DNA of 64,000 nt from positions 480,001 to 544,000 of the forward strand of contig CM000435.1 of the NCBI GenBank assembly GCA_000165345.1, read 5' to 3'. Numbering within the stretch: the stretch's first letter is position 1; each line of letters begins with the position of its first letter. Position numbers and translations under genes: made by a program. This document shows positions 25,448-51,122 of this stretch, in pieces. The notes beneath the pieces were generated by a model. It ran no database searches, had not been told where the DNA came from, and saw nothing but the letters and a program-made list of their open reading frames with translations.

Positions 25448-25529
25448 GGTGTGGTGACCGAGTGGTTAAGGTGGTGGCCTGCTAAGCCATTGTGCTCTGC
25501 ACGCGCGTGTTCGAATCACGCCCACATCG
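25448..25529 (+). tRNA. tRNA-Ser (anticodon GCT/GCU), 82 nt with a long variable arm
   Basis: Acceptor stem GGTGTGG / CCACATC with discriminator G, D-arm ACCGAGTGGTTAAGGT, anticodon loop CTGCTAA and T-arm GCGTGTTCGAATCACGC. Near-identical to metazoan tRNA-Ser-GCT. Followed by a T-run. Confidence 0.85.
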
Positions 25530-47952: not shown

Positions 47953-48341
47953 AAGTTTAGGTTCATTAAAAATTATGTCTACAATAGATATTTAGGAATT
48001 GTTATACTATAGTTTTATAGGTATTTTAGAAACTATTTAACCTTAATTACTCTAATCTTATTTGGCCAAGTAGTTGAGGGGAGGTCAAAAATAAAATGTT
48101 CAAAATATATTTAGGAATTCAACAATATGATTAATAAGGGAGAAAAAGTGGGTTAGCAATGCACGCAAACAAATAAGTAGCTTGCGGCTTATTTGATAAT
48201 CTTTATTATTAATAATTATAATCATTCAAACCATACATTTTATTAAAATCGAATTGCGGCAACGCTTTTTATGTAGTAATTTTCTTGCACAAAAGTTTTA
48301 ATTATATTTTAGGGATTATAATTTATTGTGGAAATTAAACA

Positions 48342-48645
48342 ATGCACAGCAACTTTAAGGCAGAGCCTTTTCCATTATTCGTCTCTACTCAAAGTTTTCT
48401 TCCAATATCGATGATTCTCTCGCTTATTTGTAAGTTTGATTGTATTTTTTTAAAAATTTGGTTAAGTATTATTTATGTTTTATTCTCCAGCACTGGTATT
48501 TATATCGTTTTTCATTGTATATGAATTCAGATTCCCAAGATTAAAAAGAAGTTTAAAGGATGAACTAATTGTTTCATTTGCAGGATCACTTACTTTAGGC
48601 TTAGGGCTCACTTTTGCATTATTATCATTTGGTCTATATTTTTAG
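48342..48645 (+). CDS. Small 2-TM membrane protein, 2 exons (48342-48429, 48491-48645), 80 aa; family unknown
   Basis: The 61-nt intron is GTAAGTTTG..TATTCTCCAG. The spliced protein is MHSNFKAEPFPLFVSTQSFLPISMILSLISLVFISFFIVYEFRFPRLKRSLKDELIVSFAGSLTLGLGLTFALLSFGLYF. Confidence 0.4.
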
Positions 48646-49739
48646 GTTTTAGATTTAGTTTCTTTAAGTACTTTATCTCAAGCATTACTGTAATTGTTTG
48701 AATTAAGACAAAATTTAAAAAAATTAACTAAAGCAGAAGATCATAGTTAGAGATTATTATGAAAGCAATACTGAAAAAAAAAGAATTACGAATAAATAAC
48801 ACTTTGATTTAAAAAAAAAAAAGAAAAAAAAAGACCAATAGGGATTTTGCGATAGTATGGGTTTAGAAAATTATAACTCTAGAATATTCCAATCTAACTT
48901 CACCTCTTTTCTATTCGCCGAATATACTTGCATTTGACATTTTAAGCATTAATTTGTCCAATTCATTGTCTTAATAACCGGTAACCCCACACATTGAGAC
49001 AATATGTTAACCAATTATGATTTGTTAAATAGTGCGCTAAATTTAGTTAACCTTATTTAATTTCTCCTCACACTGGTGTCTCCCAAAAGTTATGATTTCT
49101 TTCGTCACTTTTTCGATTTTATATTTAACAGGCTCGACTCGGAGTATTATTTATCTCCGATAACCTAAACCGACTTAAACTTTTATAGCGGGGGTTTTTG
49201 GCAAGTTATACCTCGTAGCTAGTTACGTCCCTAATTCTGGACTTAGCTGGTTAAATAAACTAAAATTGCTTTAGCCGTGCTAATACTAAATCTCGCTGGA
49301 TGCTCACAACCCACCTGAATTGGCAGGGTTTAGGTTCGCCCTCTACCAGCAAGTCGTATCTACTTGATACGTTTTTTTCGATAAAACCAATGTATCTCTA
49401 ATTCATATTTAGTGCCAGTACTTCGTAGTTTTTGGAATTGTGTGGGCGTCCTCAGCTTGGACAGTTGGGTGAGTCCGCGCAAAGTCTTTTTAGCCTTGTT
49501 GCTTTTGTACCACTTGACTTGTGCCGGCGATGTTGTGAACGTTTAACAACAGTTTGGAGTTAAAGGATCGTTTTCTGCGCAAATATTTGGAAAAGGGGAA
49601 ATCGCGGGATTTTATTTAGATATATTTAATGTAGAAATAAATAAAACAAAATTAGATTTACCAAAAGGGTTTGAATCATTATTTTTACTATGTTAGAGTT
49701 TATGAAGTATAGTTTTATCAGAAAACTGAATAAGCAAAC

Positions 49740-51122
49740 ATGAGTAATCAAGTTGGCTTAATTTATCCTCCATTTGAATTAAGAGCTACAATTGACAAGA
49801 CTGCCAGCTTTGTGGCGAAGAATGGGGAGGAGTTCGAGTCGAGAATACTTAGTGAATCAGGGAGTATTAAGTTTACATTTTTGAATAAGGACAATCCCTT
49901 TCATTTGTACTACAAGAAGCGAATTGAGGATTTTAAGAATGGAGTTTCTATTGACAACAGTGGGCCTACGATCCCGAGGGCAATATTGGATATGAATAGT
50001 AGGAAAGAGAAGCAAATAATTGCGGAAAAAGAGGTATTGATGTTAACATCTTTCAGTGGAGGCTTTGGGTTCATGGGAGGGGCTGTTATGGAGCCTGAAG
50101 AGCCTAGGAAGGATCAATATACAATTTCTCATCCTATAATTTCAATAAAGGATGAGTCAGTAATAAAAATTACAGCAATGTATTTGGCCAGGAATGGACA
50201 ATCTTTTTTATCAGATTTGACTGCTAGAGAGTCAAACAACCCTCAGTTTGACTTTTTGAAACCTGGGCACGCATTATTTGGATACTTTGCAGATTTAGTT
50301 GAGGCTTATTCACTCTGTTTAATTCCAAATAAGAGTTATTTGAGGGGAATGAAAAATGAGTCAGAGGATCTACAGGCAATTTTTAGACGTTGCTATAAGA
50401 ATAGTCTTTGGAGAAAGAAGGAAGTTGAAACAAACAGTGGCTTACTTGAATTAGAAAACAGGGATCATGTAGACTTGGAATGGGTCGCAATTAACATCGT
50501 TGAGACAGTTGATTTTGATGATTTGAATTTGGATCTTCCTGAACCAGTTGATTTTTCTATGCTTTCAAAGTTAGTTTTAGAGTCCTCTTTAGACATGCTA
50601 AATGAAAATGATAGGAATGATCTATTAGAAAGTGAAATTCAAAATGAAGAGAGACAGATTAATGTTTTAGTGATTGAGAAAGAACAAATAAATGATAATG
50701 TTTCTGATGAATTAAATAATACAAACAATGATGATGCTTTTGAAGAGGAATTTAAGAATATAAAAATAATTAAGAACTATGTTAGAGTGCCAAAAAAGAG
50801 GGGGCTTGTAACTAAATCAGAACAAAAAAAGAAAGGTAAAATGTACAGATGTCCAATTACAGGCCAATTGATACCTGACGAGGAAATTTCAAACCATATG
50901 AGGATTTTACTGCTAGATCCAAAATGGAAGCAACAGAAAGACCAGCTAGTTCAGAGAGCGCAGCAGGAATCCGCCCTAACAGCATCTTCAAATATAGAAG
51001 AAAACCTCATCGCATTTATTACAAAGCGTCCCGATCTTTTTGGTACAATTGAAGAAGCTGTAGCAGGAACCCATGGCTTTGAAGAGAATGGAGAAAAAAA
51101 TAAAAAGCAAAAATTTCAGTAG
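49740..51122 (+). CDS. SF3A1: Splicing factor 3a subunit 1 (SF3A1/PRP21) homolog with two SURP modules (460 aa; no C-terminal ubiquitin-like domain)
   Basis: VGLIYPPFELRATIDKTASFVAKNGEEFESRI (human VGIIYPPPEVRNIVDKTASFVARNGPEFEARI). A second SURP module is present (IKITAMYLARNGQSFL). CPITGQLIPDEEISNHMRILLLDPKW matches human SPITGEKIPASKMQEHMRIGLLDPRW. Confidence 0.85.
   Translation: MSNQVGLIYPPFELRATIDKTASFVAKNGEEFESRILSESGSIKFTFLNKDNPFHLYYKKRIEDFKNGVSIDNSGPTIPRAILDMNSRKEKQIIAEKEVLMLTSFSGGFGFMGGAVMEPEEPRKDQYTISHPIISIKDESVIKITAMYLARNGQSFLSDLTARESNNPQFDFLKPGHALFGYFADLVEAYSLCLIPNKSYLRGMKNESEDLQAIFRRCYKNSLWRKKEVETNSGLLELENRDHVDLEWVAINIVETVDFDDLNLDLPEPVDFSMLSKLVLESSLDMLNENDRNDLLESEIQNEERQINVLVIEKEQINDNVSDELNNTNNDDAFEEEFKNIKIIKNYVRVPKKRGLVTKSEQKKKGKMYRCPITGQLIPDEEISNHMRILLLDPKWKQQKDQLVQRAQQESALTASSNIEENLIAFITKRPDLFGTIEEAVAGTHGFEENGEKNKKQKFQ

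Follow-up and report, generated by a model that had tools for sequence, protein, structure and literature searches.

A candidate telomerase RNA gene, conserved across Cryptosporidium, in the spacer between the Ost5 and SF3A1 genes

We analyzed a 64,000-nucleotide stretch of Cryptosporidium parvum chromosomal DNA (GenBank assembly GCA_000165345.1, contig CM000435.1, positions 480,001 to 544,000, forward strand; hereafter the window), in which an Ost5-like gene ending at 48645 and an SF3A1-like gene starting at 49740 are separated by a spacer of 1,094 bp (48646-49739). The longest open reading frames (ORFs) inside this spacer encode 40-44 amino acids, none reaching 60 on either strand, and the largest stretch of the window without an ATG-initiated ORF of at least 60 amino acids (1215 bp) is found here. 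The second-largest such stretch (1114 bp, 54802-55915) is an intron-containing gene with Atx10 homology that is annotated in the matching C. parvum assembly. G+C content reaches 0.40-0.48 over 49150-49600, compared with 0.20-0.30 in the flanks. Thus, the gene-free gap and the locally GC-rich segments reported in a preliminary description of this DNA are both real. In a very compact apicomplexan genome, a 1.1-kb spacer of this kind is occupied by a gene, and our analysis indicates that this gene most likely encodes the Cryptosporidium telomerase RNA (TR), approximately 250 nt long and located on the forward strand at about 49131-49378.

The SF3A1-like ORF (49740-51122) has a residue-for-residue identical counterpart on a 1.36-Mb C. 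parvum chromosome (GCA_035232765.1), and its protein clusters with those of C. parvum, C. hominis, C. tyzzeri and C. meleagridis. The left neighbour (48342-48645, forward strand) encodes an 80-amino acid Ost5-like membrane protein and contains a single 61-nt GT..AG intron.

The telomere repeat of Cryptosporidium is TTTAGG (PMC8848321, PMC12179316), and the telomeres of gastric species read GGTTTA (PMC13125899). The 10-mer AACCTAAACC, a complement of this repeat spanning 1.67 repeats, occurs exactly twice in the window, against 0.16 copies expected by chance. Both copies lie inside the spacer, on opposite strands, at 49162-49171 (+) and 49327-49336 (−). This finding suggested a telomerase RNA gene; the preliminary description had considered neither a telomere-repeat complement nor a telomerase RNA.

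We reached the syntenic regions of other genomes via SF3A1 orthologues and searched them with a profile (nhmmer) built from the block around the two 10-mers. The analysis covered 12 species: C. parvum, C. meleagridis, C. sp. chipmunk genotype I, C. ubiquitum, C. canis, C. xiaoi, C. ryanae, the gastric species C. serpentis, C. muris and C. andersoni, and two species from sequencing-run assemblies. The profile returned one match per species, always on the SF3A1 strand, with E-values from 1e-82 to 1e-29. The weakest matches came from the gastric clade, which represents the deepest split in the genus and in which the element is still conserved. The order Ost5, element, SF3A1 is held in all 12 species. 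The gastric element is conserved as a discrete 280-nt unit, separated from Ost5 by 1.1 kb and from SF3A1 by 1.65 kb. In the window, the conserved unit runs on the forward strand from about 49131 to the end of a T-run at 49378, giving a predicted transcript of about 248 nt with a putative 5' end and with its 3' end at the T-run. Just past the T-run lies the motif AAACCAAUGUAUC (49384-49396, +), of which AAACCAATnTATC is found 5-7 nt after the run in every one of the 12 species, even in the gastric clade with SF3A1 at a distance of 1.65 kb. This motif may be a box for 3'-end formation or a CCAAT-type element, or it may belong to a longer precursor. In the alignment, sequence further downstream of the unit and the AAACCAATnTATC motif is unconserved even among the closest species.

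The forward-strand copy of the 10-mer is the predicted template, AACCUAAACC (49162-49171), with the core CCUAAACC at 49164-49171. This core, which covers 1.3 repeats of the TTTAGG complement, is invariant in all 12 species, as is the CCGAU that precedes it. The two 5' nucleotides of the template vary (AA, AU or GA), and the complete AACCUAAACC is present in 8 of the 12. Such a template would specify GGTTTAGG(TT). In the 12-species consensus fold (RNAalifold) it is unpaired, as expected of a template, and its sequence complements more than one repeat of the organism's own telomeres. For any particular 250-nt RNA, the probability of containing a 10-nt telomere complement by chance is roughly 0.1-0.3%.

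Read on the same strand, the second copy is an anti-template, GGUUUAGGUU (GGTTTAGGTT; 49327-49336), a perfect 10-nt complement of the template that is embedded in a three-way junction described below. The complement is perfect in 8 of the 12 species and reads GGUUAAGGUU, with one mismatch, in C. canis and the three gastric species. In the consensus fold, the anti-template pairs locally with AACCC; alternatively, it could mask the template. A template/anti-template helix predicted from eight species was rejected as a constrained helix when the gastric species and C. meleagridis were added, as it showed no compensation and the local pairing was better. A further telomere-like 9-mer, AAACCTAAA, is located at 48641-48649 on the minus strand, where it overlaps the Ost5 stop codon; it is kept in the chipmunk genotype. 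As it sits in coding sequence, it is most likely a chance match.

The consensus structure comprises 45 base pairs, 11 of which show compensatory double changes among the 12 species, and covariation is seen in most helices. Pairing of the nested helices reaches 96.6% in an ordinary MAFFT alignment and falls to 31-45% if their partner strands are shifted by 1-3 columns. The core is enclosed by a P1-like helix between GGCU (49131-49134) and AGCC (49273-49276), whose four positions pair as GC in 10 species; as GC in 7 and GU in 3; as CG in 11; and as UA in 7 and AU in 3. In the gastric species this helix reads GGCA/UGUC, with a compensatory change. Two alternative helices closing the 5' and 3' sides, CGAC/GUCG and GGC/GUC, were unconserved and were discarded. 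Next to the template is a hairpin (49139-49160) with the stem UCGGAG/CUCCGA, separated from the template by 1 nt. At 94% pairing, this hairpin has four invariant basal pairs and covarying distal pairs (AU in 8, GC in 2 and GU in 2 species), and in C. canis and the gastric species its stem lengthens to about 10 bp. A helix thus adjoins the template 5' end, as in a template boundary element, and its position in the sequence makes it a candidate for that function.

Downstream of the template, the model contains a pseudoknot. Its first, P2-like stem joins GCGGGG (49188-49193) to CCUCGU (49211-49216), with 92-94% of cells paired. In the gastric species it reads CCAGGG/CUCUGG, which includes two compensatory pairs (GC to AU, GU to CG). 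The loop of this stem opens with an invariant tract of four to five uridines (49195-49199), followed by GGCAAGUU (49200-49207). The second, P3-like stem forms between GGCAAGUU and AAAUUGCU (49263-49270), which is preceded by an A-rich linker; 86% of its cells are paired in a curated alignment, and in the gastric species GCAA/UUGC becomes GCUU/AAGC, an exchange of AA/UU for UU/AA. Between them, a two-part hairpin of 36-51 nt (49217-49252 here) forms in every species from sequences that differ by clade, with G-U pairs in 11 of 12. In a hand-anchored alignment, the two pseudoknot stems together are 88.9% paired, compared with 34-63% when slid, and show four compensatory pairs. Alternative registers are also possible, namely CUUGUUU/AAACAAG in the gastric species and UGGC/GCCR plus AAG/CUU. 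The pseudoknot is less secure than the nested helices.

Farther 3', the element folds into a three-way junction (49295-49350) resembling P5, P6 and P6.1. Its closing stem, GCUGG/CCAGC, shows 100% pairing, which includes G-U in the gastric species. Inside it, a P6-like hairpin, AACCC(A)CC...GG(CA)GGGUU (49308-49330), shows a CG to UA change in the gastric species and a CG to UG change in C. xiaoi and C. ryanae. The P6.1-like mini-hairpin (49332-49342) reads AGG-UUCGC-CCU here and AGG-UUCGY-CCU across the genus: the 3-bp stem is invariant in the 12 species, and its 5-nt loop varies at one position. The invariant 28-nt pattern of junction and hairpin yielded 0 matches when metagenomes were scanned with it. 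The element therefore contains, as a distal domain, a three-way junction with compensatory changes and an invariant mini-hairpin, whose binding to TERT is predicted only. The T-arm-like hairpin of the preliminary description, whose string AGGGTTTAGGTTCGCCCT lies at 49325-49342, proved to be the P6/P6.1-like part of this junction, and it lies, like the first GC-rich island, within the conserved RNA. The RNA ends in a hairpin, CGUAUC...GAUACG, followed by U7 (49355-49378). Pairing of the 6-bp stem is 100%, including one U-G in C. ryanae, and a run of T6-T8 follows it in all 12 species.

The terminal hairpin and the T-run, together with conserved sequences upstream, bear on the polymerase. The T7 run lies at 49372-49378, one base from where it had first been placed (49373-49379), and is the only terminator-like site found in 48600-49800. 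As proposed earlier, it behaves like a terminator of RNA polymerase III (Pol III): T6-T8 directly follows the hairpin in every species, as at type-3 Pol III genes. The hairpin and U7 constitute a Pol III-type terminator and a likely binding site of the La/LARP7 type. A local example of a Pol III terminator is provided by the tRNA gene at 25448-25529 (57 bits, the window's only Rfam match), which is followed by T6 and further T-runs. Upstream of the RNA, the element ACCGGTAACCCCACACATTGAGACAATA (48977-49004, +) is conserved in the seven intestinal-clade species. In this clade, its core AACCCCACA lies at about 48983-48991, approximately 146 nt upstream of the RNA, and C. xiaoi and C. ryanae likewise have an upstream CCCCAC core. 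The sequence of AACCCCACA resembles the upstream sequence element (USE) motifs of small nuclear RNA (snRNA) type tabulated in PMC8287931, which we regard as a lead only to a possible promoter element. Closer to the RNA, the upstream alignment revealed a conserved block, TGCGCTAAAT (49033-49042, +); a near-palindrome, TCTCCTCACACTGGTGTCTC (49063-49082, +), about 55 nt upstream of the RNA in the seven intestinal-clade species; and a T/A-rich block, TCACTTTTTCGATTTTATATTTAA (49105-49128, +). The near-palindrome could bind a factor or belong to a longer precursor, and the blocks at 49033-49128 are presumed to be promoter-proximal elements. A T5-7 run within 49033-49128 argues that a Pol III transcript would start downstream of that run. 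In the gastric species, TATAAAG is located 21-27 nt upstream of the GGCA that starts the conserved RNA. From its size, the U-run and the upstream element, we infer that the RNA would be a Pol III product.

Cryptosporidium is an alveolate, like the ciliates, whose TRs are about 150-200 nt long. Our candidate shares its small size with the TRs of ciliates and plants (Rfam Telomerase-cil RF00025; PMC6765143, PMC8287931), those of plants measuring about 250-300 nt and this one about 250 nt. TRs of both groups are transcribed by Pol III (PMC8287931). The likeness extends to the CCCAC-type element upstream with the template within 200 nt of it, the template-adjacent helix, the core closed by a short helix, the small pseudoknot predicted here and the 3' U-run terminator. 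In contrast to these TRs, our candidate has an internal U4-5 tract and shows no sequence or covariance-model similarity to them, and its distal element is a three-way junction, whereas that of ciliates is the simple stem-loop IV (PMC4993307). In this respect it resembles the vertebrate/fungal CR4/5 domain (P5-P6-P6.1; PMC4993307), with the same order of closing stem, longer hairpin and very short conserved hairpin with a 5-nt loop, and with the same placement 3' of the template-pseudoknot core. The P6.1 stem of CR4/5 has 4 bp, compared with 3 bp here, and both have a 5-nt loop (PMC4993307). No H/ACA or Sm biogenesis domain follows the junction here. The likeness to CR4/5 may reflect either homology or convergence. 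Overall, the RNA matches no curated family and mixes ciliate/plant-like with animal/fungal-like features.

Plasmodium TR, about 2 kb long, is to our knowledge the only apicomplexan TR known. It shares phylum and proposed functional class with our candidate, and the Plasmodium telomere repeat is GGGTT(T/C)A (PMC12457308), compared with TTTAGG here. A small-RNA survey of C. parvum published in 2022 reported 72 conserved non-coding RNAs (ncRNAs) of unknown function, and its text never mentions telomeres or telomerase (PMC9465071). The intermediate-size ncRNAs of that survey were added to the CpBGF annotation (PMC12179316). Our locus fits their description, for which no function is given there, and it may already be among them (PMC9465071).

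The layout of the element is that of canonical TR anatomy as summarized in PMC4993307, to judge by comparison, with the hallmarks listed there: a template-adjacent helix as a common boundary, a triple-helix pseudoknot, and a distal three-way junction with a P6.1-type hairpin. Cryptosporidium TERT has a recognizable CP motif (PMC5405514), which in vertebrates is part of the CR4/5-binding surface (PMC4993307); by analogy, this fits a CR4/5-like junction, although it is only suggestive. We infer that the RNA is transcribed, with the ends and the polymerase given above, and that it binds TERT and is active. In the mechanism we propose, TERT would copy the single-stranded 5'-(AA)CCUAAACC-3', adding GGTTTA/TTTAGG repeats to chromosome ends, and the hairpin directly 5' of the template would halt copying at the template boundary. 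The GGCU/AGCC helix would close the core around the template and the pseudoknot, whose invariant U-tract could form base triples. The distal junction with its invariant mini-hairpin would be a second TERT-binding, activating element, and the terminal hairpin with its U-tail would serve Pol III termination and act as a chaperone site of the La/LARP7 type.

Several observations weigh against a telomerase RNA or against parts of this model. C. xiaoi and C. ryanae lack an intact core-enclosing helix. The pseudoknot is uncertain: its compensatory changes all stem from one lineage, the gastric species, where the register of P3 is ambiguous. The 5' end of the RNA is likewise uncertain. The A/T-rich box of the C. 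parvum group is too close to the proposed 5' end for a classical TATA box, and the internal U4-5 tract (49195-49199) could cause premature Pol III termination. About 2% of 250-nt RNAs would contain a telomere-like 8-mer by chance alone; the scan for matches covered the 64-kb window. In single-sequence folds, the anti-template (49327-49336) pairs with the template, and we know of no TR precedent for a perfect internal template complement. The vertebrate/fungal CR4/5 has an invariant A between P6 and P6.1, whereas here eight species have U at the corresponding position (49331), with A only in C. canis and the gastric species. Finally, the RNA matches no telomerase family in Rfam, which is expected for TRs and provides no positive support: none of the telomerase families of Rfam 15 (Telomerase-vert, Telomerase-cil, Sacc_telomerase and others) matched at the gathering threshold or at E-values up to 10, even when a sequence of only 321 nt was submitted.

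The strongest competing explanation is that the element is a conserved structured small RNA of another function, such as a lineage-specific snRNA-like, 7SK-like or processing RNA, in which the telomere-like 10-mers are the arms of a long-range helix or a coincidence. The two 10-mers are perfectly complementary in 8 of the 12 species and pair in both the single-sequence minimum free energy (MFE) fold and the eight-species consensus; with 72 conserved ncRNAs of unknown function reported (PMC9465071), such RNAs are common in Cryptosporidium, and the Rfam result for telomerase families agrees with this explanation as well. However, the arms do not covary, and the 5'-end changes of one (AU, GA) and the central A of the other are uncompensated. 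The 12-species consensus leaves the template unpaired and places the second copy within the junction, where it has its own compensatory change. The chance estimate given above for a 10-nt telomere complement also speaks against coincidence, and the boundary hairpin, the U-tract pseudoknot and the junction are all placed as a TR requires. We consider this explanation unlikely.

Another possibility is that the block is a cis-acting part of an mRNA, either the 5' untranslated region (UTR) or promoter of SF3A1 or the 3' UTR of Ost5, or that a TR is processed from such a precursor. Ost5, the element and SF3A1 all lie on the forward strand in one order in the 12 species, and a fungal TR made from an mRNA precursor is on record (PMC9564094). 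Against this, the gastric element remains a discrete unit at 1.1 and 1.65 kb from its neighbours, with its own upstream TATAAAG and a hairpin with T8; the sequence between the element and SF3A1 is unconserved; and T6-8 after a hairpin would be odd as a constant feature of a 5' UTR. We regard this explanation as improbable.

The preliminary description had correctly called a non-coding RNA locus, now resolved as an approximately 250-nt forward-strand element with covarying helices in 12 species; the family resemblances mentioned there are not supported. An RNase MRP/P-like or Sm-class snRNA gene centred on 49441-49560, with an Sm site near 49430, was suggested only by raised G+C content and by two local strings, the Sm-like AGTTTTTGGAA (49427-49437) and the CR-I-like GAGTCCGCGCAAAGTC (49471-49486). 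All the strings quoted there are present, at positions shifted by one to a few bases. The Sm-like and CR-I-like strings lie outside the conserved block: GAGTCCGCGCAAAGTC is kept in no other species, and AGTTTTTGGAA is unconserved even among close ones, with neither found in C. sp. chipmunk, C. ubiquitum, C. canis or the others. We searched Rfam with the whole window at the gathering threshold and with 48200-50000 and 49100-49420 at E-values up to 10, using permissive filters, and obtained no match in the gap, including none to RNase P/MRP, snRNA, signal recognition particle (SRP) or small nucleolar RNA families; these searches returned the tRNA at 25448 and two junk matches (a CRISPR repeat and sR52, both E=7). 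The lack of conservation effectively refutes this explanation.

The two strands were compared directly. The RNAalifold consensus energy is −37.4 kcal/mol for the forward strand and −25.9 for the minus strand, and the summed MFE of the variable hairpin over the species is −159 kcal/mol and −97, respectively. The 27 G-U cells of the model become A-C on the other strand, so that 394 of 408 cells pair on the forward strand, compared with 374 on the minus strand. The consensus fold, the G-U pairs, the T-run and the sequence in the gastric species together settle the forward strand. A minus-strand RNA with AACCUAAACC at 49336-49327 as its template is scarcely credible: it has an equally good 10-nt match in C. 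parvum, and single-sequence folding z-scores are equal on both strands (−1.95 vs. −1.98), but this copy reads AACCUUAACC in C. canis and the three gastric species, which as a template encodes TTAAGG, and it therefore fails in gastric species, whose telomeres are GGTTTA (PMC13125899).

Returning to the telomerase RNA, we also considered a bolder version, in which Cryptosporidium would possess a miniature TR that combines biogenesis of the ciliate/plant type (snRNA-type promoter, Pol III and U-tail), a CR4/5-like junction with a P6.1-like hairpin, and the anti-template GGUUUAGGUU as an intramolecular switch. Such a junction had been considered typical of animals and fungi and would, in this version, be ancestral to eukaryotes. 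The template would be masked by GGUUUAGGUU, or GGUUUAGGUU would mimic the G-strand of telomeres, with TERT or a chaperone remodelling the RNA to end this state. As a whole, we hold this version to be speculative and rather unlikely.

The remainder of the spacer and its surroundings yielded further observations. The GC-rich blocks differ in conservation: the first is conserved, and the second (49441-49560, assigned to no strand) is unconserved even among close species. The second island lies outside the RNA and is probably part of the SF3A1 promoter or 5' UTR. The motif AATCGCGGGA (AAT[CT]GCGGGA) at 49600-49609, about 130 nt upstream of the SF3A1 start codon, is kept among intestinal-clade species and is probably an SF3A1 promoter motif. 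The Ost5-like gene is missing from the gene calls of C. sp. chipmunk, C. ubiquitum, C. canis, C. ryanae and the gastric species; tblastn recovered it wherever it was sought (C. canis, C. xiaoi, C. ryanae and the three gastric species). Spacers around the RNA are much longer in the gastric species, which also carry a peroxiredoxin (AhpC-TSA) gene between the EMP24 gene and Ost5 (584-1520, 930-1809 and 1076-1492 in the gastric loci L009, L012 and L013, respectively), a position at which the intestinal species have no such gene.

Telomerase RNAs diverge fast and must be found anew in each lineage. Our literature searches found no telomerase RNA for Cryptosporidium, and a 2022 paper states that computational TR prediction failed in Apicomplexa (PMC9841428). 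A compact, well-delimited candidate with a structural alignment of 12 species would provide a concrete handle on Cryptosporidium telomere biology. If the element is indeed the telomerase RNA, changing the template from CCUAAACC to CCUAGACC would show up in newly added telomere repeats, and a homologue in a species with TTTAGGG telomeres would carry the template CCCTAAACCC. The candidate would also add an alveolate data point outside the ciliates on the evolution of TR architecture and polymerase, and it would help to judge if the CR4/5 three-way junction is older than the divergence of animals/fungi and alveolates. Furthermore, it would represent a parasite-specific RNA target in a pathogen for which few drugs are available.

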